Shown here: positions 13,383-30,146 of the stretch, in pieces
Layout: the number at the start of each line of letters is the position of its first letter
How positions within the stretch are numbered: position 1 is the stretch's first letter
Position numbers and translations under genes: made by a program
Origin: a virus
Lineage: Duplodnaviria > Caudoviricetes
Reading direction: 5' to 3' (one strand)
Virus record (IMG/VR): IMGVR_UViG_2935269657_000002
Span: 6,046-70,045 of that record
Length of the DNA stretch: 64,000 nucleotides
The notes under the pieces: generated by a model
The model's input: only the letters and a program-made list of their open reading frames with translations
Database searches by the model: none
What the model was told of the DNA's origin: nothing

Positions 13383-13457
13383 CCCATCGCAACACCGGCC
13401 GCCCCGAGCGGAATTCGGGGCGGCCGGCACCCACTAGTAGATCAACAGGAGGAACCC

Positions 13458-13544
13458 GTGTCGTACCCGCAGTTGCTCACCCCGGAAGAGAAGCTCGCCG
13501 ACGCGAAGGCCCGCCTCGTCTTCGCCGACGAGGCGGCGTCATGA
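13458..13544 (+). pseudogene. 28-codon ORF, possible deletion remnant
   Basis: Strong AGGAGG RBS but very short product. Confidence 0.4.
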
Positions 13545-15104: not shown

Positions 15105-15263
15105 CTAACCCTCCCGCGACGGCACCCGGGCGGCGAGATTCGACAGCAGACAGAACGCCATCCGCTCGTCCACCTCGCCGCCGTCCACCACCGCGGCCAG
15201 CACGGCCAGCACATCCTGCGCCTCAGTGAGGGTCAGCACCGGCAGCAGCGTCTCGTCATCCAT
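15105..15263 (-). CDS. Small hypothetical protein (52 aa)
   Basis: MDDETLLPVLTLTEAQDVLAVLAAVV...; below the ORF-track size cutoff. Confidence 0.5.
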   Translation of the reverse strand: MDDETLLPVLTLTEAQDVLAVLAAVVDGGEVDERMAFCLLSNLAARVPSREG

Positions 15264-15309
15264 GGACTGGCAACGGCAGGGGAGAGGCCGGGGACACGGG
15301 GCGGGTTGG

Positions 15310-15981
15310 CTAGGCCTTCTCCGGCGCCCGGTAACGCTCGATGAACTTGTCCACCGTGGCCGGATCGCGGCGCATCGCTGCCATCAGCTGGTTCTTGCGG
15401 AACCGCTCGCGGCCGGCTTCCAGGAGCTTCTCGTAGCCGTCGCGGGCCTCGACGATGCGCTCCACGGCGAGGAACTCGATCACGTCCTCCAGGCACGGCC
15501 GGAACCGCTTCCCGCCCACCGGGAAATGCAGGGCGGCGAGAGACCGGCCCGGGTCGCACTTCGGGGCATTCAGCGTGCTGAAGAGCTGCGATGTGGCATC
15601 AACCTGCAGGTGGGCGTCCGGGTAACCGTCGGCCTTGTCCCGTTCGTAGTCGTAGTGGAACAAGCCGTGCTTGGCATCCTGGGAGCCGAACAGTCCGACG
15701 AACGACTTGTGGACCATGAGGTGCTCGCGTTCGGCGTCCAGGCGCATCTGGAAACTGACGTCCATCCACAGCTCGGCCTTCGGTGCCCGTGGCTTCAGCT
15801 GGAAGCGCCGGGCGGTCAGTGTTCGCTTGTCGAGCAGGTGTCCGAGCATGAAAAGGCGGTCGTCACCCACCTGGAGTGCGACCGCCTTTATCTGGACGTG
15901 ACGTGCGATCGTGCCGTTCAGGAGAGTCTGGATCTCCTTGGTGAAACCGATCGTCTGGTCACGCAGCTTGTCAGAGATCAA
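15310..15981 (-). CDS. Hypothetical protein, candidate toxin or defence effector
   Basis: LFHYDYE..YPDAHLQV..LHFPVGG.RFRPCLEDVIEFL; overlaps the small upstream gene. Confidence 0.75.
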   Translation of the reverse strand: MISDKLRDQTIGFTKEIQTLLNGTIARHVQIKAVALQVGDDRLFMLGHLLDKRTLTARRFQLKPRAPKAELWMDVSFQMRLDAEREHLMVHKSFVGLFGSQDAKHGLFHYDYERDKADGYPDAHLQVDATSQLFSTLNAPKCDPGRSLAALHFPVGGKRFRPCLEDVIEFLAVERIVEARDGYEKLLEAGRERFRKNQLMAAMRRDPATVDKFIERYRAPEKA

Positions 15982-16180
15982 GTGCGCCGCCGATGGACAC
16001 CCACAGGGACTGCGCCTGAGCCGAAGGGAAGTCGCGGCGGCGGGCCATGTCGCGCAGCTCCGCGTAGGTCAGACCGAGACGCTCCAGAGCCGCGTAGGCG
16101 GCCTCGCGGAACTCCTCCTGAGTGACCTCGGTGATGACGTCATCGTCGTGGTCGGCATGCCGTTGCTCCTGGATGGTCAT
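15971..16180 (-). CDS. Small acidic protein, candidate antitoxin
   Basis: 69 aa; 11-nt overlap with downstream gene. Confidence 0.7.
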   Translation of the reverse strand: MTIQEQRHADHDDDVITEVTQEEFREAAYAALERLGLTYAELRDMARRRDFPSAQAQSLWVSIGGALDL

Positions 16181-16431
16181 TCGAATCGCCCCTACCCCCC
16201 GGTAGCTTCTCGATGACAACAGTGTCCCCCAAGGGTCTGACACCCTCGCCCAGGCCACCCGCGGCTGTCCACCTGGCTGACACTCCTGACAGATACTTCC
16301 CCCTTTCGCGTCGCCCGCACCCGCCCACTTGCACGCCCCGACGGAACCAGACCGCCACACGTTCGAAAGCGAACACACCGCACCACAACGCCCCCGCCCG
16401 GTGCGTCCGGGCGGGGGCGCGGACGCGCGGG

Positions 16432-17232
16432 TCAAGCAGCAGGGCCCAGCGGCAGCTGAAGCGGGCCCTGCCCGCCCATCCGGCGATGCAGGTAGCGCAG
16501 GCCCTGAACCGTCACCCGCAGCTGCTTGGACAGGATCGCCTCGCCGGTGTGCGGGTGGGTGTACGACGTCGGCCGCTCGGCGAGGTGCGCGGAGTGCTTC
16601 GCGTAGGGCACCCCGCCCCGGTCGACCATCTCGAACTCGCGGATGGTGCGCAGCAGCCGATTCTGACCCGTCGAGATGCCACGATCCCGGTTGAGAATGT
16701 GCGCGGCGTCGCGCAGCGCGTAGTCACCCTCCGCAGAGGCGAGGCTGTCCCAGGCCTGCGCCGACGGCTCCAGCTCGCGGACCCGCGACTCCAGCTGCTT
16801 GTTCTCCCGCACCCTGCCGAGGAGGTGGACCAGCGCCTCCTCGTAGTCCTGGGGGAGGGCGGTCTGGTTACGCGACTCCGCCTCGCGAGTCTTCACCGCG
16901 AAGTATGTCTGCGCCGCGGCGATCTCGGGCTTGCGGGGATCGCCATTCATGGCGACGAGGTAGGCGGCATATCGAGAGATCAGCCAGTCGCGGGCGGGGC
17001 GTCCGCCCTGGCTGGAGGGGTTTTTCGCGGCTCCGCGAAAGTGCTCGGCTGTCTCGTAGCCGCTGTTCCGGCAGGCGATGGTCGCTCGCTGGATCACGTC
17101 ATCGAAGCGTTCCCATCGCTCGTAGCCCATGACGGGCTGGAGCTCGCGCGCCGACCAGTAGTGCATGCCCTCCGGGGAAACGCGGCGTAGGGCATCGAAG
17201 GGGGATCCGTCGTCAGGTGGGACGATGGCCAT
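16432..17232 (-). CDS. Phage antirepressor (Bro-N/DinD-like N-terminus plus ANT/KilAC C-terminus)
   Basis: WSARELQPVMGYERW, AMNGDPRKPEIAAAQTYFA, LPQDYEEAL, TGQNRL, RVTVQG. Confidence 0.9.
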   Translation of the reverse strand: MAIVPPDDGSPFDALRRVSPEGMHYWSARELQPVMGYERWERFDDVIQRATIACRNSGYETAEHFRGAAKNPSSQGGRPARDWLISRYAAYLVAMNGDPRKPEIAAAQTYFAVKTREAESRNQTALPQDYEEALVHLLGRVRENKQLESRVRELEPSAQAWDSLASAEGDYALRDAAHILNRDRGISTGQNRLLRTIREFEMVDRGGVPYAKHSAHLAERPTSYTHPHTGEAILSKQLRVTVQGLRYLHRRMGGQGPLQLPLGPAA

Positions 17233-17396
17233 GGTGACTCCAAGGTCTGTTGGGTTCAGGCAGGAGTGATCGACTGGGCCCGCCCTGGACCGGCAAGAAC
17301 AGGGCGGGCCTGCCGCGTCTCACGGTAGCCCAATCGGATGCAGAATGTGTCAACTTCCATCAACTAGATTGAGTGGAGGTGGGAAGATCTGCCATC

Positions 17397-17816
17397 ATGG
17401 TTGACATGGACGGCATCCCCGAGAAGACGCGACTCATCCGGCTTGGCGAGCTCATGCATCAGCGAAGGCTGGAGCTCGACCTGTCCAAATTCGCAGTCGC
17501 CAGTGCCGCCGGAATCTCGATCAACACCTACCGGCGTCTCGAAGAAGGGCAGCCCGTCCGCGACGTGACCTACGCCAAAGTTGAAAGCGTTCTGGGGTGG
17601 GCCGCCGGGTCAGCGCAGCGAATCCTCAACGGCACTGGCGGTGCGGTAGAAGTCCACAAGCCCGGTCGCGGCGTTGTGGTCGAAGTCCCCGAGGAGGAGC
17701 TGACTGACTCCGTGCAGCGCGCGGCTATCGCTGTCAGCGACGATCTGACTGCCGCCCAGATCCGGGACCTGTCACGCCGTGTGCTGGAAGACCTCAAGAA
17801 GCGCGGCATCCTGTGA
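17397..17816 (+). CDS. XRE-family HTH regulator (start uncertain: 17373, 17397 or 17406)
   Basis: RRLELDLSKFAVASAAGISINTYRRLEEG. Confidence 0.85.
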   Translation: MVDMDGIPEKTRLIRLGELMHQRRLELDLSKFAVASAAGISINTYRRLEEGQPVRDVTYAKVESVLGWAAGSAQRILNGTGGAVEVHKPGRGVVVEVPEEELTDSVQRAAIAVSDDLTAAQIRDLSRRVLEDLKKRGIL

Positions 17817-17819
17817 ACC

Positions 17820-17862
17820 CATGAAGAAGGCCCCGCCCGGATTGGGCGGGGCCTTCTTCATG
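17820..17862. terminator. Bidirectional terminator hairpin
   Basis: Perfect 19-bp stem CATGAAGAAGGCCCCGCCC with 5-nt loop between convergent genes. Confidence 0.85.
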
Positions 17863-17868
17863 CCGTGG

Positions 17869-19347
17869 TCAGCGTGCCCCGTACTGCCAGGTGCTGCCGG
17901 TGCCCCGGTACTCGGAGACGGGAATCGGCTCGACACCTTCCCGCATCCGTGACCGGTACAACTGACCGTGCAGGTGGTCGACCTCGTGGGCGACGAGCCG
18001 GGCAAGGCCACGCTCGAAGATCGTGATCCGTTCGGTGCCGTCGATGTCCTGATGCTCGACAGAGATGGCGAGCGGGCGGGGCACCTTCCCGCGCACGTCG
18101 AAGAAGCTCAGGCAGCCCTCGTATTGCTCGTCGGCGTCGGGGGACTCCTCAACGATCCGCGGGTTGAACAGGGTGATCGACTCGCCCTCCGGTGTGCGGA
18201 CGATCGCGGCGGCCCGGTCGATGCCGATCTGTGGCGCCGCCATGCCCATGCCCTTGCCGAACACGTGGACTGTGGCTGCTCGTTCGCAGGCGGAGATGAG
18301 TTCGGCGACTACTCTGCGCGCGTCCTCGGCCTCGGCTGGCAGGTCGAAGGTGCGGGCCGTCTTGGAGAGGATTGGGTCGCCCTCCTGGACGACTCCGACG
18401 GCGCGCATCCTCTCGCTCGCAGTCGCTTCGGTCACGGTCTCCACCTGTCGGGACTCCTCAAGGTCGGGGCGCTGACGGAACTTCCATTCGAGCCTGTACC
18501 TGGCGTGCAGCGGCGGGTTGTCCGTCGACCATGAGTAGATCCGCCGGCCGTCTTCCTCAGTGCGCCGTATCGGCGTGCGCAAGGGGAGAGCTTCAGCGGT
18601 CATGGTCGTTTCGGTACCCCATACCGTGGGGGCGATCTCGGCGGGGAAGTCCAGGCGGACGCTCATGCGCTGCGTCGGGAGGCGCACCGCCCGTTGGAAC
18701 CAAGATCCCCACTTTTGATCGCTAACGGTATAGCTGTACTCAAGCCAGGATGATTCGCCAGGATAGAGCGGAGACTGGTCGAAGAGCAGCCAGAGTTCCT
18801 TGAACGCATCCCGGTCGTGCTTCACCCGCCACGTCAACGGTTCGCCGTCGACTGACGCACTGAGACCGATCTCCTCCCACGTCAGCGGGTTGTCTCGGTA
18901 GTGCCGGTTGGAGCGCTCGGGGTCGCCCGGGTAGCGGTCCACGGAGATGCGGATCAGGTAGCGGGTCACTGGGTCGGGCGAGTCGTTGTAGAGCCGACGC
19001 CGCTGAGTCGCCCGGTAGACGTGCCCGTCGTAATGGAGCGTCGTGTCCTCATGCTCGACGATCAGATTCGTCGTGTGCGACTCCTCGCCGTTCGGCGCGG
19101 GATGCGGGGCCACCGGGCGGCCGTGCTTCACGATGTCGCGGAACGCGCGCCGGATCGCCCCGCCGGCCTGCAGGACGTCGTCTGCCAAGGCGGCGAACTC
19201 CTCGGACGCGGGCAGCTGACCGCCCTCGACCTTCGACACATACGACGGCGTGTACCCGACCTCGCGAGCCAGCTTGGACTGGCTCTTGCCGCGGATGTCG
19301 CGCCAGTGCTTCAGCTCGGCGATGAACGCTTCGGCTGCCGCCTGCAT
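17869..19347 (-). CDS. XRE-HTH / beta-rich domain / peptide deformylase fusion
   Basis: N-terminal SQSKLAREVGYTPSYVSKVEGG; PDF motifs GMGMAAPQ, EGCLS, HEVDHL. Confidence 0.9.
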   Translation of the reverse strand: MQAAAEAFIAELKHWRDIRGKSQSKLAREVGYTPSYVSKVEGGQLPASEEFAALADDVLQAGGAIRRAFRDIVKHGRPVAPHPAPNGEESHTTNLIVEHEDTTLHYDGHVYRATQRRRLYNDSPDPVTRYLIRISVDRYPGDPERSNRHYRDNPLTWEEIGLSASVDGEPLTWRVKHDRDAFKELWLLFDQSPLYPGESSWLEYSYTVSDQKWGSWFQRAVRLPTQRMSVRLDFPAEIAPTVWGTETTMTAEALPLRTPIRRTEEDGRRIYSWSTDNPPLHARYRLEWKFRQRPDLEESRQVETVTEATASERMRAVGVVQEGDPILSKTARTFDLPAEAEDARRVVAELISACERAATVHVFGKGMGMAAPQIGIDRAAAIVRTPEGESITLFNPRIVEESPDADEQYEGCLSFFDVRGKVPRPLAISVEHQDIDGTERITIFERGLARLVAHEVDHLHGQLYRSRMREGVEPIPVSEYRGTGSTWQYGAR

Positions 19348-19466
19348 CGCTCCCCCTGTGCCTATGAGTGAGTTGTGAGTGATCGACTCTCAGGCTGCCG
19401 TCACAGCGTCACTGGCGAGTTTCCTGGCAGCTGACCAGGGAGGCTCAACGTGGCACTGGAACCGGA

Positions 19467-19724
19467 TCAGGAGGGCGATTCGCTCTCCGTGAGGCGCTCG
19501 CGATCGATCTTGTTTGCGATCTTCCGAGCCCACTCTCGGCTGTACGGGGTGTGCTCGGCGATCACGGTGAGTGGAACCCCCGCACTGCGGGCATCCGCCA
19601 CGAGTTCGTCAAGGTGTTGCCGACTCGCCTCGTATGTGGCTGCAGCGCGGTCGAGCTTGCGCAGCCACGGCCTTCTGGCGCGCTCATCAAGGAGCTTGTC
19701 GGGCTTACCTGTCATGCCCTGCAT
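19467..19724 (-). CDS. Small HTH repressor divergent from the transfer operon (Kor-like role inferred)
   Basis: ARSAGVPLTVIAEHTPYSREWARKI. Confidence 0.7.
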   Translation of the reverse strand: MQGMTGKPDKLLDERARRPWLRKLDRAAATYEASRQHLDELVADARSAGVPLTVIAEHTPYSREWARKIANKIDRERLTESESPS

Positions 19725-19739
19725 CGTCTCATGAGGCTC

Positions 19740-19860
19740 TGCCAACTGAATAGGCGCGGCGCGACCAAACAATCACTGCCAACTATGTTGCACTCGGAGC
19801 CCGTACTGTGCACTATGGAGCTGCCAACAAAATGGGCAGCCCCGCCCGGTGCTACCAACA
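19740..19860 (+). promoter_or_regulatory. Promoter and operators of the transfer operon
   Basis: TTGCAC(19788)-17 bp-CACTAT(19811), overlapped by TGCCAAC-containing imperfect palindromes. Confidence 0.55.
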
Positions 19861-19906
19861 CCGAAACGGGGCCTAGGTGCGACCCCTGCGGAAGAGGGAG
19901 CGAACC

Positions 19907-20434
19907 ATGAGCACAACCGTACAGCCCGCCCTTGCGGCGGAACCAATCATCGACCGCCTGCCGCAGACCATCACTGACACCCCCGTCCCGTACACCGTGA
20001 CCGAGGCCGGCGCCTGCGCCATCGAGGGGCCCCTCAGCAGGGCTGGCTACCGTCTGGTCCCCGCTAGGGTCGGCAGGTCCGGCGAGCTGGTCACGGTGTA
20101 TGTCGAGTGCCCGACCGGCTGGTGCGTGGTCGACCACGCCGCTGAGCCGGTCGGGAGCGTCGAAGACATCAACCACCAGGGCGCGCCCGCGGTCCTGAAC
20201 CTGGCGTCGGACCAGGTCGTCAGCGCGCCGACCGAGGTCTACCTGTCGTGGTGGCCCGGCTCCCGCGATGCCGCCGCCCGCCCGTGCCTGGCCGTCGATG
20301 TCGACTGCGAGGTCGCTGTCTATGGCCGCACCGCAGCGCTCGCCCTGGTCGACCAGATCACTGCATTCGCCGCAGACGTCCGTCGGCTGGCTGAGTCCCT
20401 GCCCGACGACTCCACGACCGAGGCGGTGCAGTGA
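19907..20434 (+). CDS. DUF6907-like protein
   Basis: CPTGWCVVDH...EDINH motif. Confidence 0.65.
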   Translation: MSTTVQPALAAEPIIDRLPQTITDTPVPYTVTEAGACAIEGPLSRAGYRLVPARVGRSGELVTVYVECPTGWCVVDHAAEPVGSVEDINHQGAPAVLNLASDQVVSAPTEVYLSWWPGSRDAAARPCLAVDVDCEVAVYGRTAALALVDQITAFAADVRRLAESLPDDSTTEAVQ

Positions 20435-20655
20435 TGACCGCCCCCGTCATGTCCGCCGCCGACGTCGCCGCGCACGAGGCGGGCTCCTACGTCCGCCGCC
20501 GGCCCCGTATGCCGCTGGATGTCTCGGACGAGTTCCTGCGTGCTCTGCACCGCGAGGACACGTGGGATGTGCCGGCCGCCGAGCGTCGTACCTGCCCCGA
20601 TCATCTGGACTGGCGTGACCGGTGCCAGCGGCTGCATGAGGCGGTGGCGTCGTGA
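20431..20655 (+). CDS. Hypothetical protein
   Basis: Coupled ORF. Confidence 0.65.
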   Translation: MMTAPVMSAADVAAHEAGSYVRRRPRMPLDVSDEFLRALHREDTWDVPAAERRTCPDHLDWRDRCQRLHEAVAS

Positions 20656-20912
20656 CGACGAAGCCGCGGTTCTCCAGCGAGTTGCAGGCCGGTATCGCTA
20701 TCGGTCGGCTGATGGGCCGGATCGACCCGGCTCCGGAGGCTGCCCCGTTCATGCGGTTCCTGTTTGAGACTCCGGCCGGCGAGTGGGCCTTTCACGGCCA
20801 CGTTTCCGAGGCTGGCGCCGTCCTGATCGCCGCCCTGCTGGAGGCGGAGGAGGACCGGCAGGTCCGTCGCCCGCCGCGTCTGGCCGTTGTTCGGCCGCTC
20901 CGCCCGGCCTAA
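20652..20912 (+). CDS. Hypothetical protein
   Basis: Coupled ORF. Confidence 0.65.
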   Translation: MTTKPRFSSELQAGIAIGRLMGRIDPAPEAAPFMRFLFETPAGEWAFHGHVSEAGAVLIAALLEAEEDRQVRRPPRLAVVRPLRPA

Positions 20913-21002
20913 CCCCCCTAGTCCGCCGCGGGTGGCGGATGTTTCGGCCCCTCCCGATCCTGCCGCCCGCGGCTCCACTTCTTGATCCTCGAAGGGATCG
21001 TC

Positions 21003-21242
21003 ATGTCTCCGTTCCTGTTCGACGCCGATTTGGGTGTCACCGGGCTGGGTCTGAGGGCCCGCTCGTCGGCCACGGTCGCCGATGTGTCCGACGCCTACGC
21101 GGCGCAGCTGATCGGCGAGTACCGCGATGCGGTCGCGGCCGGCCGTCTCGACGTGATGCAGCTGATCCGGGATCACGCGGCAGCGATCGACCCGCTGCTG
21201 CTGGACGAGCTCGACGGCTTCGACTACCCGGCGGCGGCGTGA
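21003..21242 (+). CDS. Hypothetical protein
   Basis: AAGGGA RBS. Confidence 0.65.
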   Translation: MSPFLFDADLGVTGLGLRARSSATVADVSDAYAAQLIGEYRDAVAAGRLDVMQLIRDHAAAIDPLLLDELDGFDYPAAA

Positions 21243-21382
21243 TGTTCGGCCGTCGTACCCCGGAGCAGTTGGCTGCCGCGGACCATGTGCGCCGTGCGAA
21301 GCGGCGCGGGAAGGACGCGGCCGACCTGGCCAGGCGCCTGAAAGCCGAGACGGACGCTGCGGCGAAGCGCCCCACCCCCTGA
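21242..21382 (+). CDS. Small basic protein
   Basis: TGATG coupling. Confidence 0.55.
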   Translation: MFGRRTPEQLAAADHVRRAKRRGKDAADLARRLKAETDAAAKRPTP

Positions 21383-21532
21383 TCGCCGCGCCGGCGGGGA
21401 TTCCGTTCCCCCACGGCCTCCGCCGGCGCGGCTCCCCAGCCCTTGCCCGGCCTCCACGGGCGTATGCCGCAAGTGCAGGCAAGGGCGCGACCGCCGACCG
21501 GCGGTTCATCAAATCCTTGGAAGGAGCACGTT

Positions 21533-21706
21533 ATGGGTTTTCGTCGCAGCCTGTCGGACTCGGACCTGGCGCAGAGCATGGAACTGGAATCGGAGATCGC
21601 CCAGGACGCTCACGCGAACGGCAACCGGGCGCGTGAGGAGGCGGCGCACGACAGCCTCAACGAGTACCTGGACGAGGCCGAACGCCGCGGCTGGACGAAG
21701 AAGTAA
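21533..21706 (+). CDS. Small acidic protein
   Basis: AAGGAG RBS. Confidence 0.65.
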   Translation: MGFRRSLSDSDLAQSMELESEIAQDAHANGNRAREEAAHDSLNEYLDEAERRGWTKK

Positions 21707-22158
21707 TGGCCGGGGCGATCGTCGCCGCCGTCGCCGCGCTGGCGGGTGTGCTGTTGCAGGCGCTGATCGGCGGCCGGCGGGCGCGTGCGGAGCGGCGCCG
21801 GGCCGAGTTCGTCGACACGGTCCGCGGCGTGCTGGCGGCGTATGTCGAGTTCCGCAGCGAGCAGTACCTGAAGATCGCCGCCCGGCGTGAGGGGCACGGC
21901 GACAGTGACGAGTCGCGCCGGGCCCGCTATGCGGCTCGCAGTGCGCTCACCGCGGCGATCGATGCCCTGTACACGGCCACCGACGACCAGCAGCTGCTGG
22001 CGGCAGCCGAGGAGGCCCGCGAACTGGCGGTGGCCCTCGGCGATGCCGCCCCGGCCCCGGGCCAGGTCGACGAGGCGGCGGTCGAGGAGATCGGGCAGCG
22101 CGCCCGCGAATCTCACTCCGACCTGCGTCAGGCCGCGCACAAGGCCCTGCACCACTGA
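21706..22158 (+). CDS. kilB: KilB-like protein (pIJ101 type)
   Basis: N-terminal TM helix followed by a charged helical region (ARYAARSALTAA); about 150 aa, similar in size to KilB. Confidence 0.65.
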   Translation: MAGAIVAAVAALAGVLLQALIGGRRARAERRRAEFVDTVRGVLAAYVEFRSEQYLKIAARREGHGDSDESRRARYAARSALTAAIDALYTATDDQQLLAAAEEARELAVALGDAAPAPGQVDEAAVEEIGQRARESHSDLRQAAHKALHH

Positions 22159-22252
22159 ACGTTCAGCCCCGGTGACCTGCCGCGAGGGCGCCCGATCGAC
22201 TCGGGCCCGGGGCACGCACCACAACCATTCACCGATCCGAGAGGAGCCCGTG

Positions 22253-22432
22253 ATGGGCCTGTTCAACCGCACCGACAAGCAGTGCGCGCAGGAACTGGTG
22301 GCCGCGGCGATGGTCACGAAGGACGCGGACGAGACCGCCCGGGTGATCCGGCAGAAGGGGCTGACGCAGGAGGAGATGGCCCGGGGCGCCGCGTACATCC
22401 GTTCCGGCAAGCGGGTCACCGGCCGCGGCTGA
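22253..22432 (+). CDS. Small hypothetical protein
   Basis: GAGGAG RBS. Confidence 0.65.
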   Translation: MGLFNRTDKQCAQELVAAAMVTKDADETARVIRQKGLTQEEMARGAAYIRSGKRVTGRG

Positions 22433-22456
22433 CTCACCCACCGAAAGGAGCCCGCC

Positions 22457-22570
22457 ATGGACAAGTACACGACCGACACCGGCAGCGAGGTCGAGGTGGA
22501 AGACGACGGCGACTTCACCATCACCTTCCCGATGACGGCGCCCGCGCCGGACGGCAGTGACGAGGACTGA
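22457..22570 (+). CDS. Small acidic peptide
   Basis: AAGGAG RBS. Confidence 0.55.
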   Translation: MDKYTTDTGSEVEVEDDGDFTITFPMTAPAPDGSDED

Positions 22571-22574
22571 CCCG

Positions 22575-22715
22575 GTGCCTGGCAAGCAGTGCGCGCAGTG
22601 CGAGGCGCACGCGGTCCTCCATAGCGGAAACCCCGGGTTCGGCCCCAAGAACGAACCCTGCCCGCCGTGCGAAGACCACGCGGCCAACGGATGCCCCGGC
22701 ATCAACCGCAAGTAA
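22575..22715 (+). CDS. Small Cys/His protein (pRL2-8-like)
   Basis: CAQCEAH...CPPCEDH..NG. Confidence 0.55.
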   Translation: MPGKQCAQCEAHAVLHSGNPGFGPKNEPCPPCEDHAANGCPGINRK

Positions 22716-22747
22716 CCACCAGCCCAACACCCAGAGAGGGGCCCGCT

Positions 22748-22882
22748 GTGGCCTGGAAGGAATGGCACTGCGACGGCTGCAAGACGCACTACCTGCTGCA
22801 CAAGGGCGGCAAGAACCTGCCCTGCAGCTGGTGTGAGGCCCACGCCGAAGACACGTTCTTGATCTTCTTCGACAAGAGCTGA
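22748..22882 (+). CDS. Small zinc-ribbon peptide
   Basis: CDGC...CSWC. Confidence 0.55.
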   Translation: MAWKEWHCDGCKTHYLLHKGGKNLPCSWCEAHAEDTFLIFFDKS

Positions 22883-22924
22883 CCCACCCGCCGAACCTCA
22901 ACCCCCATCCGAGAGGAGGCCGCC

Positions 22925-23137
22925 ATGCGGCCCCGATCCTGGCTGCTGCTGGCGGCCTTCCTGTTCCTGACCGGTATCTGCCCGCCGATCGCGTCGCTGC
23001 TCGGCGGCACGGTCGGCCTGGCGGTGGCCGGGGCCGTGGAGCTCCTGTCGCAGCCACCGCTGCTGGGCCTCGCCCTCGTAGTGCTGGCCGTCACCGCCTA
23101 CCGCCGCCGTCCGGTCGTCCCCCCGGGGAGGGCCTGA
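22925..23137 (+). CDS. Small membrane protein (Spd-like)
   Basis: Almost entirely hydrophobic; GAGGAGG RBS. Confidence 0.65.
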   Translation: MRPRSWLLLAAFLFLTGICPPIASLLGGTVGLAVAGAVELLSQPPLLGLALVVLAVTAYRRRPVVPPGRA

Positions 23138-23340
23138 TGCCGGTCACGTTCCGCAAGAGCTACCGGATCTTCCCCGGCGTCCGGCTCAACATCAACCGGC
23201 GCTCGTGGTCGGTCACATTCGGCGGCGGCAAAGGCCCACGCCACACGATCTCGTCGACCGGACGCCGCACCACCTCCATAGACCTGCCCGGCCCCTTCGG
23301 CTGGCGATCCACCCGCACCCGACGCAACCGAGAGGACTGA
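23137..23340 (+). CDS. DUF4236-like protein
   Basis: FRKSYRIFPGVRLNINRRS.SVTFG. Confidence 0.8.
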   Translation: MPVTFRKSYRIFPGVRLNINRRSWSVTFGGGKGPRHTISSTGRRTTSIDLPGPFGWRSTRTRRNRED

Positions 23341-23345
23341 TCACC

Positions 23346-23567
23346 GTGAGTCGCTACCTCGAAGAGGCCGCCGCCCTGCTGCGCAAGTCGGCCGAATCTA
23401 ACGAGAAGCAGAACAACGCAAAGGACTACCGCATCGACTCTCTTATGGAGGGCCGAGAGCGGATCGCCCGGCAGTTCGCCACGCTCGCCGCCATCGACAA
23501 GGGCCTGCTGCCCGCCGACATCACGGCGGACGTAGTACGCGCCCTGACGGAAAGGGCGGAGGCCTGA
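23346..23567 (+). CDS. Hypothetical protein
   Basis: RBS and GTG start. Confidence 0.6.
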   Translation: MSRYLEEAAALLRKSAESNEKQNNAKDYRIDSLMEGRERIARQFATLAAIDKGLLPADITADVVRALTERAEA

Positions 23568-23568
23568 C

Positions 23569-23763
23569 ATGCGTGCCCTCGACCTCGCCGCGATACCGCC
23601 TGCCGGTGCCGCTACCTACGGCACGATCGTCGCCCTGCAGTCGGCCGGGATGTCGGAGCGGCCCGCGCACGCCCTCGGCGCCGTCGCGATCATCCTCTAC
23701 CTCGCGCTGCTGACCACGCTCATCGACCACATCACCGCAGCCCGCACCGCCGTGCGCGACTGA
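23569..23763 (+). CDS. Small two-TM membrane protein
   Basis: Hydrophobic segments. Confidence 0.6.
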   Translation: MRALDLAAIPPAGAATYGTIVALQSAGMSERPAHALGAVAIILYLALLTTLIDHITAARTAVRD

Positions 23764-23786
23764 ACCCCTGAAAGGACTGATCCACC

Positions 23787-25088
23787 GTGGCAACCTCCGT
23801 CGACAAGAAGGTCAACGGCCACCACGCCGTGGCCTCGCCCGAGCCCCGGTTCGACCCGGTCGCCCTGGCCGAGGCGGAGGCCATCCGGACACGCGCCGCC
23901 GCCGAAGCCGAAGCCCTGCGCATCAAGGCTGAGGGTGAGGCCGACGCCGCCCGCACTCTCGCGGCCGAGCAGGCCGAGAAGGACCGCCTGGCCAACGAGC
24001 GCACCAAGATCACACTGGAGCGCAAGAAGGCCGACCACGACGCCTACATCGCCAAGAAGGCAGCCGAAGCCGCCAAGTCGCTCGCCGACAAGGAGAAGGC
24101 GGAGAAGGCCGAGGCGGAGAAGGCCGAGCGGCAGGCACGGCGGGCCGCCGAACAGCAGCGCAGCGAACGCATCTGGAAGTGGGGCGCCCGCGGCATCTAC
24201 GCCGTCGGCCTGCTCATCGCCGCACCCGTGCAGTTCATCCACTTCTGGGACCGCGAGCGCCCGTTCCTCGTCGCCGCCCCCGCCCTCCTCGAAGGGTTCG
24301 CGCTGGCACTGGCCTTCGGCGCCGCATGGGCGGTCGCGCACCGCCGCGACGTCGCCCCCTACCGGATCGGCATCATGCTCGGCGCCCTGATCGCCGCCGG
24401 CGTCAACCTGTACGGCGGCCTGGTCGACGAACGCATCGGCCTCAACGCCGGGCTCATCGGGGCGATCGCCTCGCTCGGCGGGCCGATCGTGCTCATGGCC
24501 TACGAGCACGGCCTCGCACAGAAAGCCGACGGCATCCCGTCCTGGCGCGAGCGACGTGCCGCCGACCGGGAGCAGGCGGCCCTGGCGAAGGAGCGGGAGC
24601 GGGCGCGTGCGGAGAAGGCCGCCGCGGACAAGAAGGCTGCCCTCGACAAGGACGCCGAACGGCAGCGCGCGATCGCCGAGCAGAACCGCCGCGACGCCGA
24701 CCGGCGCGACCGCCACCGAGACGTGTGGGAGGTCGCCGACGCGATGCGCTCCGCACGCGGCTCGGCCACCGTCACCGAGCAGATCTGGGCGGAAGCCTGG
24801 TACCGCGTCACCGGCTGCAAGCACGTCGGCATCACCCCGGAAATCGAAGCCCGCGCCCGCGCCGCCGAAGCCCGCATGAAGACCGCCACCGAAGCACCCG
24901 TTCTTGGATCTATGTCGCTGGTTGATTCCCAAATCAAACCTCGCCGGAAGAAGGACCCGGAGACCCCCGACGGGCGCCGCAACAACGGCGGTACACCCCC
25001 TGTCCGCCGGCCCGGAGATACCCCGCCGTACAGCCAGCTCGCCCGCCGTCAGATCGGCATCCAGCGCAGCACCGAGAAGAAGGACTGA
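23787..25088 (+). CDS. SpdB2/DUF2637-like membrane protein
   Basis: Coiled coil, four TM helices, second coiled coil; directly upstream of traB. Confidence 0.7.
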   Translation: MATSVDKKVNGHHAVASPEPRFDPVALAEAEAIRTRAAAEAEALRIKAEGEADAARTLAAEQAEKDRLANERTKITLERKKADHDAYIAKKAAEAAKSLADKEKAEKAEAEKAERQARRAAEQQRSERIWKWGARGIYAVGLLIAAPVQFIHFWDRERPFLVAAPALLEGFALALAFGAAWAVAHRRDVAPYRIGIMLGALIAAGVNLYGGLVDERIGLNAGLIGAIASLGGPIVLMAYEHGLAQKADGIPSWRERRAADREQAALAKERERARAEKAAADKKAALDKDAERQRAIAEQNRRDADRRDRHRDVWEVADAMRSARGSATVTEQIWAEAWYRVTGCKHVGITPEIEARARAAEARMKTATEAPVLGSMSLVDSQIKPRRKKDPETPDGRRNNGGTPPVRRPGDTPPYSQLARRQIGIQRSTEKKD

Positions 25089-25096
25089 GAACCGTC

Positions 25097-27145
25097 ATGG
25101 CCACCCCGACGTCCGCCCGCCAGAACCCTGCGGGCCCCGCCCCCACAGTCCCGCCGCAGCCGGCCGGGCAGCCTGTCGACAAGCGGCCCGCGACCCCGCC
25201 GCACCACCTGCCCGCATGGGTCCACTCGAAGACGGCCAACGCCCGACGCATGGCCCGCACCGTCGGCACACATCCCGCCGTGGTGTGGATCGGCTGGTCG
25301 GCGCGCGGCTGGTGGCACATCGCCCGCATCGAGCACGACAAGATGGTCGGCGACTATCCGCAGATGATCCGTACCGCCCGTGCTCACATGGCCGCCGCCA
25401 AGGGGGACATGGCCAAGGAGGCGCAGGCCGAGGCCAACGCCAACCGGCGCACCCAGCAGCTGCAGGAGCGCCGCCGCCGCTACGCCCTGACCCGCGGTCT
25501 CATGGCGGCCCCTGCCGCGGGCGGCGCCGTATACGGGCTCGTCGAGGGCGGAGTGTGGATGTCGGCGCTCTACGCGGTGGCCGCGGTCACGGTGGGCGTA
25601 TGGCGGGGCCGTCCGCGCGGGGTCGACCCCGGCAAGGTCGAGATCGCCGGCCAGGACGGCGACCCGTTCCCGATCGCCGACGCCCGCAACCGCACCGAGG
25701 CCGCCGAATGCGTGCGCCGCGCCCTGACCTCCGAAGGCATCGCGGTCGCCTCGGTGGAGGCGAACAAAAGGCACGCCTGGGGCTGGGAGATCACGGTCAG
25801 GCTCGCCAAGGGCAAGCCCGCCGACATCGTCACCAAGGCCCCCGACCTGGAGACCCCGCTCGACTTGCCGGAGAACGGGCTGCACTGCCAGCCCATGCGC
25901 GCCTCCCGCGGCCAGGTGGTGCTGCGGCTCGTCCAGTCGGACCCCTTCGAGCGGATCCCCGCGGCGCCGGAGCGGAAGCCCAATAGCCGCCGCCTGAAGG
26001 ACAAGCAGCTGGTCGCCTACCGGATGGACGGCCAGGAGTTCGAGCCGTCGCTGCTCGGCATCCACGTCATCGTGATCGCCGGGTCGGGCGGCGGGAAGTC
26101 CGTCATCCTGCGCACCCTCGCGGACACGCTGACCGCATGCGACGACGTGGTCGTCGGCGACCTGGATCCGGGCGGCAACGGGCTCGCCCCGCTCGCTGAG
26201 GCGATGGGGGTGCGGGCGATCGGCGACGACCAGATGGGGCAGATCGAGAAGATCCTCGAACAGGCCCTGAAGATCGGGAAGGCGCGGCCGAGGCTGTTCG
26301 CCAAGCACGGCATGAAGGAGAACTGGGAACCCTCCCCGGACCAGCCGGCGATCGTCCTGTTCATCGACGAGTACCCGCAGCTGTCCGACCGGGCCAAGGA
26401 ACTCGCCGTCAAGATCCTGCAGACAGGCCGCAAGTCCCGCGTGCAGCTCGTCCTCGCCGCACAGGAAGCGACCAAGGATGCGATCGGTGCGGCCATCGCC
26501 GACACCATCGCGCTGCGGATCGTCGGACCGTGCCGCCGCCAGGACGTCGTGCAGGTCTTCGGCGGGGGAGCGGGCGACCAGGGCTGGCGGCCCGACCGCC
26601 TCGACCCCGCGGAGGGCAACGCCGAGGGCGACGACCTGCGCGACGCCTCCCAGGCCTACATCCGCGGCTGCGGCTCGCGCGAGCCCCTCAAGTACAAGTT
26701 CGTCTTCCTCGACGACAAGGACGGACGCCGGCGCGGCAAGGAACGCGCGGCGGCAGGCCGGCCCGTGGTCGACCAGGAGTCGCTGATGATCGCGGGCCTG
26801 GACCGGTTCGGCGCGACCGAGGAAGACCGGCTCCGTGCCAATCTGCCGAGAATCGTGATGATGGTGCGCGGCGCGTTCGCCGCAGCCGACGACCCCGACT
26901 TCCTGTCCACCTCGGACCTGGTGACCTACCTGGGAGCGCACGACCCGCGCTCGTGGGGTGCCGAGCGGTTCGGTGACGACGAGTCCAAGGGGCACGCCGT
27001 GGCTGCCCGCCGCCTGGTCGCCGATTTGAAGGGGGCCGTCGAGGGCTTGGATCTCGACATCGACATGTCGACGGTTCAGGTCAGTGGGGTGCGCGGCTAC
27101 CGCATTGAAACGATCAAGCAGGTGACCGGAGAGAGCCCCCTCTGA
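25097..27145 (+). CDS. traB: FtsK/SpoIIIE-family conjugal DNA translocase (TraB-like)
   Basis: N-terminal TM pair, Walker A AGSGGGKS, Walker B VLFIDE, GRKSRVQLVLAAQ, C-terminal wHTH-like region (VRGYR). Confidence 0.85.
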   Translation: MATPTSARQNPAGPAPTVPPQPAGQPVDKRPATPPHHLPAWVHSKTANARRMARTVGTHPAVVWIGWSARGWWHIARIEHDKMVGDYPQMIRTARAHMAAAKGDMAKEAQAEANANRRTQQLQERRRRYALTRGLMAAPAAGGAVYGLVEGGVWMSALYAVAAVTVGVWRGRPRGVDPGKVEIAGQDGDPFPIADARNRTEAAECVRRALTSEGIAVASVEANKRHAWGWEITVRLAKGKPADIVTKAPDLETPLDLPENGLHCQPMRASRGQVVLRLVQSDPFERIPAAPERKPNSRRLKDKQLVAYRMDGQEFEPSLLGIHVIVIAGSGGGKSVILRTLADTLTACDDVVVGDLDPGGNGLAPLAEAMGVRAIGDDQMGQIEKILEQALKIGKARPRLFAKHGMKENWEPSPDQPAIVLFIDEYPQLSDRAKELAVKILQTGRKSRVQLVLAAQEATKDAIGAAIADTIALRIVGPCRRQDVVQVFGGGAGDQGWRPDRLDPAEGNAEGDDLRDASQAYIRGCGSREPLKYKFVFLDDKDGRRRGKERAAAGRPVVDQESLMIAGLDRFGATEEDRLRANLPRIVMMVRGAFAAADDPDFLSTSDLVTYLGAHDPRSWGAERFGDDESKGHAVAARRLVADLKGAVEGLDLDIDMSTVQVSGVRGYRIETIKQVTGESPL

Positions 27146-27156
27146 GGTGCTCGGAT

Positions 27157-27303
27157 GACCTGTGGCGACCCGTGAAGCCGCAGGTCACAGCCGTGAAGGT
27201 ATCTGTGACTTGCCGTGATTCCGGGCCCGTTGCCGTGAACCGGCCACAGGTCGCCACGGCAAAGGCCACGGCTCTGACCTGGACGTTCACGGGTCGCCAC
27301 GGC
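27157..27303. repeat. clt-like array of CCGTG(A/G) repeats with dyad symmetry
   Basis: CCGTGA at 27170, 27191, 27213, 27233; inverted (C/T)CACGG at 27254, 27266, 27287, 27297. Confidence 0.75.
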
Positions 27304-27338
27304 AAGGAAAGCGGCAAGAATGCGAAGGAGATCCCGAT

Positions 27339-27977
27339 ATGGGCCGCACACTCAAGGTCGTCGAAATGACGATCAACGGGCACCCGTATGTGTGCCCCGA
27401 GTGCGCCGCGGCGGCGTTCACGCTCGACGCGACCGGCTTCCTCGACGGCCTGCCCGCCTCCGGCAACTGCCCCTCCTGCGGGCACTTCTGGCAGGACCCG
27501 CTCATCACCTGCGCCGCCCTCCGCCAGATCCGCGCGTCGAGCTCCGGCCGCGAACGGGCCACGGACACCGACACGTTCGAGATCACCGTCGGCGGTGCGG
27601 TCCTCGCCGGAACCCTCCACCCGGAGGTCACCGCCGACGACCTCAAGCAGGCGGGCCGCGTGTACTGGCGGCGGATCGCCAAGCCGGCCGTGCGGCGGAA
27701 GAAGCGCGAGGTGGTCCGCGCCGTCAAGCGGCCGATCCGGGCGGCGAAGAAAGCCGCCTCCGGGCGCGTCGACGAGGCGGTCGCCACCGCCAAGGCCGCG
27801 GCCGTCGGGGCGGCCTGGAGCCTGCAGACCGGCGAGCCCGACCCCGACTGCGCGCCCGAGCCGGTCAACCCGTGCGGGGCCTGCAGGGGCAAAGGCAAGT
27901 TCAAGATCGACTCCCACCTGCACGACGCAACGACCGTCCGCTGCTCCGTTTGCTTCGGCACCGGCGAAATCGACTAG
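27339..27977 (+). CDS. Zinc-finger protein with DnaJ-like CxxCxGxG motifs
   Basis: CPEC, CPSC, CGACRGKG, CSVCFGTG. Confidence 0.75.
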   Translation: MGRTLKVVEMTINGHPYVCPECAAAAFTLDATGFLDGLPASGNCPSCGHFWQDPLITCAALRQIRASSSGRERATDTDTFEITVGGAVLAGTLHPEVTADDLKQAGRVYWRRIAKPAVRRKKREVVRAVKRPIRAAKKAASGRVDEAVATAKAAAVGAAWSLQTGEPDPDCAPEPVNPCGACRGKGKFKIDSHLHDATTVRCSVCFGTGEID

Positions 27978-27987
27978 GAGACCCGTC

Positions 27988-28488
27988 ATGTCCAGCCCGC
28001 TGCCCGAGCGGCCCCCGATCCACGCCGCACCGGCGACTGGACAGGCCGCCCTCTCCGACGCGGTCATCGAAGCCGCCATCGCCAACGCCATCGAGCAGGC
28101 CAAACGGCACGGCACCAGCCCGCAGGCCGTCATCGGCACCACCCCGCCCGTCGCCCAGCCCGGTATCCCGCCCATGGACCCGCACTACACCCAACTCGGC
28201 CGCCTGTGCCTCTACATCGGCTGCGCGACCGTACCCCCGGGGCTGGTCGGCTCCCTGTTCATGGTCGCGACCGGCTACGCAGATCCGACCGTCCTCGCCT
28301 GGTGCGCGGTCGGAGTGGCCAGCCTGGCCGTCCTCGTGATCGCGGTCGGCAAAGCCGGCAAGCGCATCATGAGCGCCGCCCCACCACCCGCCATCCACGA
28401 GCACTACACCGGCACCGTCTACCAGGACCAGCGCAACGTCCACACGTCAACCAAGGGTGTGTGGGCCAAGACCAACAACCAGCAGTGA
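27988..28488 (+). CDS. SpdD-like membrane protein
   Basis: Two TM helices; C-terminal HEHYTGTVYQD..TKGVWAKTNN. Confidence 0.6.
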   Translation: MSSPLPERPPIHAAPATGQAALSDAVIEAAIANAIEQAKRHGTSPQAVIGTTPPVAQPGIPPMDPHYTQLGRLCLYIGCATVPPGLVGSLFMVATGYADPTVLAWCAVGVASLAVLVIAVGKAGKRIMSAAPPPAIHEHYTGTVYQDQRNVHTSTKGVWAKTNNQQ

Positions 28489-28499
28489 AGGAGAACGAC

Positions 28500-28781
28500 A
28501 TGATCACCGAAACGCTCGACACCACCGACCTGCACCGGCAGGCGGTGTACCTGCTCGTCCAGTCGAAGATGGCCGACCGGGCGGGCGCCAACCCGGCCGA
28601 GTGTCCCGTGCACCGGAAGGCGCAGGACGCCGTCGAGACGGCCGTCGCCGCCGGGGCATCCCACGCCGACATCCACCGCGAGGCCGGCATCCAGGAAGCC
28701 ATCCACGTCCTGTCGTGCCAGCTGCCCGGCTACGAGCCGGCCATCGACTACGACGGCGCCAGGTACGGCGTCGCGGCCTGA
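28500..28781 (+). CDS. Hypothetical protein
   Basis: AAGGAG RBS. Confidence 0.65.
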   Translation: MITETLDTTDLHRQAVYLLVQSKMADRAGANPAECPVHRKAQDAVETAVAAGASHADIHREAGIQEAIHVLSCQLPGYEPAIDYDGARYGVAA

Positions 28782-28792
28782 GAGGAGACGAC

Positions 28793-28888
28793 ATGGACAA
28801 CGAGTGCCAGCTCTGCGGAGCACCCGGCGGATACCCGTACTGCAACGCCGCCTGCGAGGCCGCCGACAACCCTGAAGAAGAGGAGTGA
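28793..28888 (+). CDS. Small Cys-rich peptide
   Basis: GAGGAG RBS; CQLC..YCNAAC. Confidence 0.55.
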   Translation: MDNECQLCGAPGGYPYCNAACEAADNPEEEE

Positions 28889-28987
28889 TCCGCACGCGCC
28901 CAACTGGCCCGACCACCAGCTACGGCTACGAGCCGCAAGCCGCCTGACCCGCACGAGCGCGCCCCCTCCGCAGTCAGCGCGGAGCGA

Positions 28988-29182
28988 CTACCCGCCCGCG
29001 CCTAGGCCCCGGCCGCATTCCGCGTCCGGGGCCTTCGCTGTCGGTGCCGTCTTCGCGATCCACCGGTCGCCGGTGACCTGCCTCGGCGGCAGCGCGGGCA
29101 AGAGTCCGTGGGCCAGCAGCCACGCCAGGCCGGCAGCCGTCTCCGCCTCATCGTCGCCCAGCACCGAGAACCGTAACGCCAT
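28988..29182 (-). CDS. Small protein with TTA as codon 3
   Basis: ATG GCG TTA CGG TTC; 64 aa. Confidence 0.55.
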   Translation of the reverse strand: MALRFSVLGDDEAETAAGLAWLLAHGLLPALPPRQVTGDRWIAKTAPTAKAPDAECGRGLGAGG

Positions 29183-29384
29183 GCGGTGAGTGTGACCGAG
29201 CGGGCGAGGGAGCGGGGCGGGAACCGGGGGATTAGGCGTCGGAGGTGGTCTCGCAGAGCCCCAGCCCCGCCGACAGGACTGGGGCTCGCGCATTCGAGTG
29301 TGCCATTGGCTCACCGTGTCAACCGCCAGTGCAACAATTGGCTCAAGTCTCACCCTGCTTCCCGTGCCACCCGAGGAGCCTGCC

Positions 29385-30146
29385 GTGCACGACCACCCCA
29401 CTCGCAAGCCCTGTCCCGGCCCTTGCAACAACGCCTGGCGCCGCGCTGAAACAGTTCTCGCCGAGACAGGCGCCGACCACCACATCACCCCGTCCTGGGG
29501 GCAGCCCATCCAATGCTGGGACTGCGTGGGGCGAGCCCGGCGACAGATTGACGAACTTCCCGAACTCCTCACCCAGATACAGGTCGAAGCCCTCTATGGC
29601 ACCCGCCCGCAGAACACCGCCACCATAGGCAGCCGACCGAACGACGCCCCTGCGTGGCCCGGACAGGCGGCGCGACTCCTTATCGACGGCCTCCTCGGCG
29701 AGATGGAAGAACTCGTCACCGACGTCCTCACGCAACGCGGCATCTGGAGCGGCGACTTCGAACCTGACCGCATCGGCACGCGCGAGGGACGCCGCATCAG
29801 CGCCGCATGCTCGACGCTCGCCGGGCACCTCGACTGGATGATGCAGCAGCATCCGGCCGCAGCCGAACCCCACGAGACCGGCAACGCCAACCCCGCCGGA
29901 CAGATCCGTCACTGGCACGGCACCGCCCAGCGCTTCACCAAGCAGCACCCGCAGCGCGACGTCCGCAAGATGGCGCCCTGCCCACGCTGCAAAGGCCCCT
30001 ACCTCGCCGAGTCCCGCGACCTCCGACTCGTCGACGACCGGCCTTACATCGAATGCCGTGATCCCGACTGCCGGCGCATCATGACCGGCGCCGAATACGA
30101 TACTTACGTCAAGGCCCTCGCCGCAGTCGTCACTCAGGCCGCTTGA
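29385..30146 (+). CDS. Putative late-gene activator/antiterminator (zinc-binding)
   Basis: CPGPC..CWDC N-terminus, CPRC..CRDPDC C-terminus; located just before the late operon. Confidence 0.6.
   Translation: MHDHPTRKPCPGPCNNAWRRAETVLAETGADHHITPSWGQPIQCWDCVGRARRQIDELPELLTQIQVEALYGTRPQNTATIGSRPNDAPAWPGQAARLLIDGLLGEMEELVTDVLTQRGIWSGDFEPDRIGTREGRRISAACSTLAGHLDWMMQQHPAAAEPHETGNANPAGQIRHWHGTAQRFTKQHPQRDVRKMAPCPRCKGPYLAESRDLRLVDDRPYIECRDPDCRRIMTGAEYDTYVKALAAVVTQAA

Follow-up and report, generated by a model that had tools for sequence, protein, structure and literature searches.

An FtsK-like translocase, an SpdB2-like partner and a palindromic repeat array recur together in Streptomyces prophages and form a putative homolog of plasmid transfer loci

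The stretch of DNA analyzed here (the window, 64,000 nucleotides) comprises bases 6046-70045 of a 70,045-bp provirus record of IMG/VR (IMGVR_UViG_2935269657_000002) with a completeness rating of 100%, and the element to which it belongs is a complete siphovirus-type Streptomyces provirus. Genes were called from the codon-position bias in GC content, and the predicted proteins were scanned against Pfam, PHROGs and NCBIfam. A run of co-oriented genes on the + strand (19877-28781) separates a reverse-strand regulatory block from the late genes of this provirus, and within it three features follow one another: a gene coding for an SpdB2-like membrane protein (23787-25088), a gene coding for an FtsK/TraB-like double-stranded DNA translocase (25097-27145) and a palindromic array of short repeats (27146-27338). 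The original prediction, made from the sequence alone, had pointed to the same co-oriented run ahead of the late genes and had proposed that it constitutes a TraB-type conjugation and spread module carried as cargo by a virion-forming prophage. The layout of the run agrees with that description, and we analyze below the components of the module, their distribution and the function that may be attributed to them.

The translocase gene, located on the + strand, encodes a protein of 682 amino acids that matches the PHROGs family phrog_12531, annotated as "FtsK/SpoIIIE-like protein", with an E-value of 3.3e-109. No change occurs in its Walker A motif (GGGKS, G331-S335) or its Walker B motif (D424 and E425) in any of the 23 relatives aligned. 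When an AlphaFold2 (AF2) model of the protein, with a mean predicted local distance difference test score (pLDDT) of 68.6, was used as a Foldseek query, the best match was the FtsK motor 2iut (E 3.5e-11, TM-score to target 0.64), followed by the clostridial conjugation coupling protein TcpA and then by the type VII secretion ATPases EssC and EccC; at the sequence level, the match to solved FtsK structures is marginal (E 0.2). Taken with the homology to plasmid translocases reported below, the family match, the invariant Walker motifs and the FtsK-like model uphold the assignment of this gene to the FtsK/SpoIIIE ATPases.

The gene just upstream, also on the + strand, encodes a protein of 433 amino acids for which a coiled coil followed by four transmembrane helices had been anticipated. 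Residues 26-128 consist to 81% of A, E, K, R, D and Q and are coiled-coil-like, hydrophobic peaks are centered near residues 136, 160, 194 and 219, and a C-terminal domain follows. This layout is that published for SpdB2 of plasmid pSVH1, which Thoma et al. (2015) describe as an N-terminal coiled coil, four transmembrane helices and a C-terminal domain. Direct hmmscan at E 0.01 returned no Pfam match, DUF2637 (PF10935) included, for the 433-residue protein or for 16 homologs of it (in the comparison loci numbered L007 to L024), and NCBIfam gave none at threshold for the 433-residue protein. A kinship with DUF2637 is indicated at the profile level, where hhalign aligned a 17-member profile of the partner family to a DUF2637 set made up of five upstream-partner proteins with a probability of 98.2% and an E-value of 4.7e-14. 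In this set, gp24 of phage VWB and the protein of L025 are direct Pfam matches to DUF2637, the protein of L022 is a sub-cut-off match, and the remaining two, from pFP1-type plasmids, were included by RefSeq annotation or position. In a similar vein, BLASTP related the 433-residue protein to the DUF2637 protein of pFP1 (E 3e-8), and the fourth-ranked match in the ESM Atlas is a cluster named "putative SpdB2 protein" (score 0.87). A tblastn search with the protein against 50,697 phage records yielded no match.

The 193-bp spacer behind the translocase gene (27146-27338, assigned to neither strand) contains five direct words of the form CYGTGA and then inverted words of the form TCACRG or CCACRG. 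This palindromic iteron array, the repeat array of the original prediction, is bracketed by the words CAGGTCA at 27181 and TGACCTG at 27275, which lie 94 bp apart. The spacer holds four of the 15 exact CCGTGAA sites of the window, and the array aligns in register with the same spacer in two related viral contigs (L006 and L007). The architecture is conserved well beyond these: both bracket words are present in the spacer behind the translocase gene in 18 of 21 other loci, and their spacing is 95 bp wherever measured. The exceptions are L017, in which the gene call shortened the spacer, L022, which has one bracket word, and L025, which has none. The repeat word, by comparison, is specific to the lineage. 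The window's clade shares CGTGAC with another that is about 50% identical to it, whereas L008 has AACCGCT, L019 GTGACA, L023 and L024 GGGTGCTC, L025 CCTGTC and the pFP1-type plasmids CTCTAC. Moreover, the halves of the array co-vary: of its five paired repeat positions, four show two-sided changes (3 to 9 sequences). Thoma et al. (2015) describe clt in Streptomyces plasmids as consisting of 8-bp repeats that the plasmid's own TraB recognizes. Since the repeat word is lineage-specific while the two halves change together, the array may likewise be taken for a cognate cis site, and "clt-like" appears to be the best reading of this candidate site. It should be added that clt is described as direct repeats, whereas the array of the window is a palindrome of convergent repeats.

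The family of the translocase comprises 180 clusters at E <= 1e-10; among the 120 listed, identities range from 50 to 84% and the named clusters are nearly all from Streptomyces. A survey restricted to one genome per species gave 18 genome loci, 15 of which carry the partner gene (373-509 codons) adjacent and upstream. A terminase and/or portal gene was recognized no more than 10 kb downstream in 13 of the 18, Pfam accounting for 12 of these and a resemblance to the window's terminase for L016. The recurrence of the trio ahead of the late genes in related prophages, which had been suggested as a check, was thus borne out. These 13 loci do not share a single head module, since at least four types occur across the loci: an SPP1-type portal with VG15; Phage_portal with an S78 protease and an HK97-type capsid; Terminase_3 with a MuF protein; and Terminase_6N with minor capsid protein 2. 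Among the five that remain, the contig of L018 has a length of 4 kb, L008, with the same pre-late genes as the window, is cut off by the end of its contig, no structural genes were seen within reach of L009, and L022 and L025 look plasmid- or AICE-like (AICE, actinomycete integrative and conjugative element). Scanning IMG/VR with a profile yielded 20 loci, L006 and L007 being already in the set. Nine further IMG/VR loci, with contig sizes of 19-75 kb, each have a match to the partner family upstream, at a gap of up to about 500 bp, and seven of the nine carry the bracketed array.

In a tree of the translocases (quick maximum-likelihood search, midpoint root, some rows left out), the 24 sequences labelled as being in a prophage context form one clade with an SH-aLRT support of 99. 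A clade from lytic phages and a clade from pFP1-type plasmids fall outside it, the branching order between these two not being settled. The prophage clade, the recurrent position and the mosaic of head types lead us to conclude that the module is an inherited part of a mosaic phage family. The notion of domesticated cargo, by which the block was originally explained, is therefore not sustained: the module is conserved across a large family of Streptomyces prophages, and its translocases make up a clade of their own. In the open-access literature searched, we found no description of integrated prophages that combine such an ATPase, an SpdB2-like gene and a shared cis array. Two kinds of gene were observed next to the module in these loci, namely a GntR/UTRA regulator upstream of it in L009, L010, L012, L015, L017, L021 and L023, and a NUDIX hydrolase gene beside it in L007, L008, L013 and L024.

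The closest relatives of the translocase outside phages are those of the 39-63-kb pFP1-type plasmids of Streptomyces (NC_006912 and NZ_CP108056). The plasmid translocase is 45% identical to that of the window over 422 residues, a 480-residue protein weakly similar to the 433-residue protein is encoded just upstream of it, and downstream of it lies an array with the same CAGGTCA...TGACCTG bracket. The 480-residue protein of pFP1 is a DUF2637 protein by RefSeq annotation; the copy of the NBC_00285 plasmid has no Pfam match at E 0.001. The two systems differ in that the plasmid translocase is longer (about 860 residues) and carries an N-terminal FtsK-gamma domain that the phage protein lacks, in that the repeat word of the plasmids is CTCTAC and that of the window CGTGA, and in that no phage genes figure in the plasmid annotation. 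According to Ghinet et al. (2011), pFP1 is among the conjugative Streptomyces plasmids whose Tra proteins they analyzed. Gene order, protein similarity and the common bracket support the proposal that the module and a transfer locus of Streptomyces plasmids are homologous.

A comparison can also be drawn with the plasmid-phages pZL12 (phiZL12, GQ919031) and pFP4, virion-forming Streptomyces elements that carry a transfer function, as is presumed of the provirus analyzed here. Like plasmid-phages of this type, the window has a full set of virion and lysis genes alongside an FtsK-type putative transfer gene. In pZL12, the FtsK-like gene pZL12.71c is directly upstream of the structural genes and co-oriented with them, as in the window, and a divergent GntR regulator is found at pZL12.71c. 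The relationship of the proteins is distant: hhalign connects the ATPase core of pZL12 with the window's family only remotely (probability 94%, E 1.4e-7), tblastn with the window ATPase did not recover pZL12 even at E 10, and the two genes beside pZL12.71c have no detectable kinship to the SpdB2-like family. Furthermore, pZL12 is a 90-kb circular record with annotated ParA/ParB, whereas the window is classed as an integrated provirus. Transfer of pZL12 is said to require a main tra gene along with two neighboring genes, and pZL12 and pFP4 are described as conjugating as episomes and forming infective particles. pZL12 had been invoked originally as a partial precedent; the precedent holds, but it is a stronger one than that wording allowed, given that pZL12 and pFP4 are both described as conjugating and forming virions, that pZL12 has its FtsK-like gene at the equivalent place and that Thoma et al. 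(2015) had already made a related proposal for phages (see below).

The TraB/SpdB2 system of pSVH1, as set out by Thoma et al. (2015) and Vogelmann et al. (2011), resembles the module in its FtsK-like pump, in a four-helix coiled-coil SpdB2, in small membrane proteins (Spd) and in a short-repeat cis site close to the pump gene. Judged from this description, it differs in that the window ATPase does not reach PF01580 (FtsK_SpoIIIE) and its partner does not reach DUF2637 by direct hmmscan.

Relatives of the ATPase are present in 91 phage records, all of Streptomyces phages, and every genome among the roughly 60 listed, Gilgamesh included, has about 120-136 kb. These lytic-phage relatives (Jay2Jay gp111 and others) are 41-49% identical to the window protein and belong to the same PHROG, and in Jay2Jay (L004 6680-8488) the ATPase gene stands alone within a cluster of transfer RNA (tRNA) genes. 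The reverse arrangement is seen in the temperate phage VWB (L026), whose gp24 is a DUF2637 protein (E 1.2e-35). As in the window, gp24 lies upstream of HNH, prim-pol-like and terminase genes, which are 44-70% identical to those of the window; unlike the window, VWB has no FtsK-like ATPase, there being no Walker A motif in the three + frames after gp24 and an hhalign probability of only 0.1. Thoma et al. (2015) proposed that SpdB2 homologs of phiC31 and VWB spread phage DNA. As a separate observation on this part of VWB (10733-13915), the deposited gp25 and gp26 frames look wrong, since they overlap and give proline/arginine-rich translations, and an alternative frame of the same region reads as membrane proteins.

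We consider that there is about an even chance that the block is a dsDNA transfer or spread apparatus of the Streptomyces plasmid type that is owned by the phage and acts on the phage genome, as its sequence relationships suggest. What is observed comprises sequence homologies, domain anatomy, a conserved order of genes and a cis array that is likewise conserved; from these we infer a DNA-pumping activity, a reader of the array, a time of expression and a benefit to the phage. In the mechanism envisaged, a hexameric FtsK-type pump (25097-27145) would sit at the membrane or septum with a pore-forming SpdB2-like partner (23787-25088), assisted by several small membrane proteins. The pump would load onto the phage genome at the array (27146-27338), just downstream of its own gene, and would drive double-stranded phage DNA through cross-walls or hyphal contacts into neighboring compartments. 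Most likely, the apparatus would serve, once infection or induction has taken place, to carry replicating phage DNA through the mycelium, with transfer to another mycelium as a possible extension. Spread during lytic growth is rated above conjugation from a quiet lysogen because the genes lie between the early and the late genes, in the same direction, and because lytic relatives keep the pump. The general concept has already been published; the most useful new element here is a lineage-specific palindromic site common to phages and plasmids. With distinctly less confidence, a broader proposal can be put forward, in which a phage-lineage FtsK-type pump and an SpdB2-like pore would provide a large family of temperate Streptomyces phages with a second, virion-free route of infection within the mycelium and perhaps between mycelia. 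On this tentative proposal, the convergent repeats would set the direction of pumping in a KOPS-like manner, and the architecture of the site would identify the module and the pFP1-type plasmids as parts of one ancient transfer system. KOPS motifs direct pumping around dif.

A number of results weigh against a phage-owned transfer apparatus or against particular steps of it. The ATPase has no match to Pfam PF01580 at E 0.01, and the same holds for five relatives (L004, L013, L021, L023 and L024), the plasmid-like L022 translocase giving a match below the cut-off (E 0.0023). Because it misses PF01580, the ATPase is not a close relative of the classical TraB proteins of the pSVH1 and pIJ101 type. 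A transmembrane anchor had been attributed to it, and a hydrophobic stretch indeed exists, but it is a single and weak one (residues ~148-170, Kyte-Doolittle 1.56), helical in the AF2 model with a pLDDT below 50. The C-terminal region had been likened to a winged helix-turn-helix. Modelled alone, the last 123 residues adopt a confident fold (pLDDT 86), the best VIA-align matches of which are winged-helix DNA-binding domains at middling scores (Z <=5.5), and Foldseek returned no match for this domain at E <= 0.001; the likeness can thus be called plausible, not established. Nor do repeat word and translocase correspond perfectly. Two clades with C-terminal domains only ~30% identical both use CGTGAC, and the L008 translocase (L008:7890-9953), 76% identical to that of the window, is followed by an array (L008:9954-10135) that uses AACCGCT. 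The L008 protein departs from its clade mainly at residues 80-160 and not in the C-terminal domain. It follows from this imperfect link that the array may be read by a protein other than the ATPase. We do not claim the C-terminal domain as the reader of the repeats, the covariation of translocase and repeat word not being clean. Finally, both the partner gene and the bracketed array are absent from all nine BE-type lytic loci (L036-L044; contigs of 14.6-136 kb, eight of them about 122-136 kb), and the pump, retained by itself in lytic phages, may have a function for which neither is required.

This last point bears on an explanation that we regard as quite unlikely, namely that the pump and its partners serve host takeover or exclusion, by acting on septation or segregation or by blocking competitor DNA, and that the array is a mere promoter, operator or terminator. 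The category to which PHROGs assigns the family is "moron, auxiliary metabolic gene and host takeover", and BE-type lytic phages hold the ATPase alone among tRNA genes. The ATPase core also matches, weakly, the candidate defense protein mad8 in PADLOC (E 7.7e-8), but this is the only match among the 20 block proteins scanned, and no complete defense system was recognized. The array, for its part, could be an operator: it runs up to the ribosome-binding site of the next gene and, as single-stranded DNA, would fold into a long hairpin (z -4.83). Nevertheless, a consensus promoter scan of 19000-30000 found no promoter-like site, and none of the eight terminator-like sites of that interval (4.3 expected) falls within the array. 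The array with its invariant 7-bp bracket words, 94-95 bp apart, stays with the translocase while the gene downstream varies by clade, and its architecture is common to the pFP1-type plasmids, both of which speak against this explanation.

Somewhat less doubtful, although still unlikely in our estimation, is conjugation from lysogens, in which the excised prophage circle would be moved to another mycelium via the array without lysis and regardless of receptor resistance. It draws on the same homologies of ATPase, partner, array and plasmids as spread during lytic growth, and on the plasmid-phages, which conjugate and form particles according to the descriptions cited above. The GntR/UTRA and NUDIX genes beside the module in related prophages also recall KorSA and Pif, a pair of the same two families that, in a review, is reported to control the transfer of the AICE pSAM2. 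Against conjugation, the module is co-oriented between the early and late lytic genes, and for that reason it is probably expressed when the phage commits itself to lysis; the classification of the record is that of an integrated provirus, and conjugation does not explain why lytic phages have kept the ATPase. With regard to the conjugation and spread module initially proposed, then, the homology to plasmid transfer stands, but conjugation of an excised prophage fits no better than lytic spread does. Very improbable, by contrast, is the idea that the block is a remnant of an independent AICE or plasmid that was inserted in the prophage and is unrelated to phage biology. The nearest non-phage relatives are indeed plasmid translocases, and L007 has AICE-like surroundings (GntR, an excisionase-like HTH_17 gene and NUDIX) with no structural genes in 22 kb. 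Nonetheless, no integrase, Rep or excisionase family was detected in 19467-29182 with Pfam, PHROGs or NCBIfam, and the longest direct repeat flanking the block has 13 nt, which is at chance level, just as had been noted before. GC content is even through this region, at the ~70% that prevails across the record, the translocases of prophages form their own clade, and the module keeps a constant place ahead of the late genes in 13 of 18 loci with differing head types. A nested AICE is thereby essentially excluded.

If the module moves phage DNA between compartments, it would offer, in multicellular bacteria, a route of infection that skips adsorption, and this would change the view of phage spread, plaque formation and resistance in Streptomyces and blur the boundary between prophage, AICE and conjugative plasmid. 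The conserved trio is a system that can be tested in ordinary laboratory strains, and the array may serve as a mobilization site for genetic tools. Even if the function is otherwise, a widespread and unnamed prophage module and its cis element have been defined.

Most of the remaining genes of the run encode small proteins. The first gene (19877-20434, +) encodes a DUF6907 protein of 185 amino acids (Pfam PF21848, E 5.8e-18). Farther downstream, the gene at 21706-22158 (+; GC content at the three codon positions 0.83/0.52/0.89) encodes a 150-residue protein with one N-terminal hydrophobic helix (residues 3-21) and a 54%-identical homolog in L012. It had been labelled KilB-like, a label without support in the general libraries, as no family was found for it in Pfam, PHROGs, NCBIfam or PADLOC, libraries that contain no KilB model or reference. 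On the opposite strand, an open reading frame of 304 codons with high GC at third codon positions (GC3) overlaps this gene (21610-22524, -); we take it for a shadow frame because the + frame has the typical GC pattern at the three codon positions and the homolog in L012. Next come two adjacent genes (22557-22715 and 22748-22882, both +) for proteins of 52 and 44 amino acids with two CxxC pairs each and homologs in L008, L017 and L020, a 70-residue membrane protein with two to three hydrophobic segments (22925-23137, +; homologs in L008 and L012), a DUF4236 protein of 67 amino acids (23137-23340, +; Pfam PF14020, E 1.4e-16), which is 72-80% identical in L007, L008 and L012, and, just ahead of the SpdB2-like gene, a 64-residue protein with one hydrophobic helix at residues 34-52 (23569-23763, +).

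The gene directly after the array (27339-27977, +) encodes a 212-residue protein with CxxC pairs at both ends of its sequence, and homologs 47-59% identical to it are found in eight loci of the window's clade (L006-L012 and L018). The SpdD-like label that it had received could not be upheld. The protein has a weak zinc-ribbon match in Pfam (PF08271, E 0.0091, 16 bits against a cut-off of 29) and no family in PHROGs, NCBIfam or PADLOC, none of these libraries holding an SpdD model or reference, and a search of the ESM Atlas was uninformative (best score 0.81). The run ends with a 166-residue membrane protein with two hydrophobic segments (27988-28488, +; phrog_19266, E 7e-25) and with a 98-residue protein (28485-28781, +; GC3 0.95) that has no family in Pfam, PHROGs or NCBIfam. 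The several small membrane proteins foreseen in the run can accordingly be located at 21706-22158, 22925-23137, 23569-23763 and 27988-28488.

Upstream of the run, the divergent small repressor that had been placed at 19467-19772 (-) corresponds to a doubtful gene, with a TTG start, a GC3 of 0.72 and sub-threshold family matches only. Nonetheless, its one homolog, 56% identical and in the matching place in L013, hints that it may be a real gene. A candidate for a divergent regulator is the neighboring gene (17869-19347, -), which encodes a 492-residue fusion of an XRE-type helix-turn-helix (HTH) domain (Pfam HTH_31, E 3e-11) and a peptide deformylase (Pep_deformylase, E 1.7e-31). Homologs 71% identical to this fusion occupy the same place in L014 and L020, and its role may be that of a prophage regulator whose metalloprotease-like domain acts in sensing or processing. 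Together with an antirepressor gene (16432-17232), it belongs to the reverse-strand regulatory block (15105-19347) that precedes the run.

The early genes, on the + strand up to ~14.5 kb, encode RecE/RecT-like proteins, a replication initiator, a DnaC-like loader and a methylase. The late region begins with genes for an HNH protein, a prim-pol-like protein, the small and large terminase subunits, portal, protease, scaffold, decoration and major head proteins, and continues with connectors, tail tube, tape measure, tail tip and spike, endolysin and holin. Every head, tail and lysis gene is an open frame, in agreement with the earlier impression that they are intact, and the phage around the block thus looks intact. 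Identity between the late genes and their counterparts in the temperate Streptomyces phage VWB amounts to 40-70%, and the portal is 60-63% identical to the portals of VWB, SF1 and SF3. The small prim-pol-like protein (33509-34093, +; phrog_8643, E 3e-67) is encoded between the HNH and small terminase genes, and VWB has the same arrangement, with 62% identity. Prim-Pol proteins are the replication module of some AICEs as well. Searches for tRNA genes and for end-to-end repeats did not locate the prophage ends or an attachment site within the record, which contains no tRNA gene that could be found, and the sole notable match between its two ends is a 19-nt inverted one. The right arm of the provirus (59838-62576) contains genes for a 201-residue phrog_1583 protein, for an Arc/ParG-like protein (60553-60771) and for a weakly tyrosine-recombinase-like protein (61458-62576).

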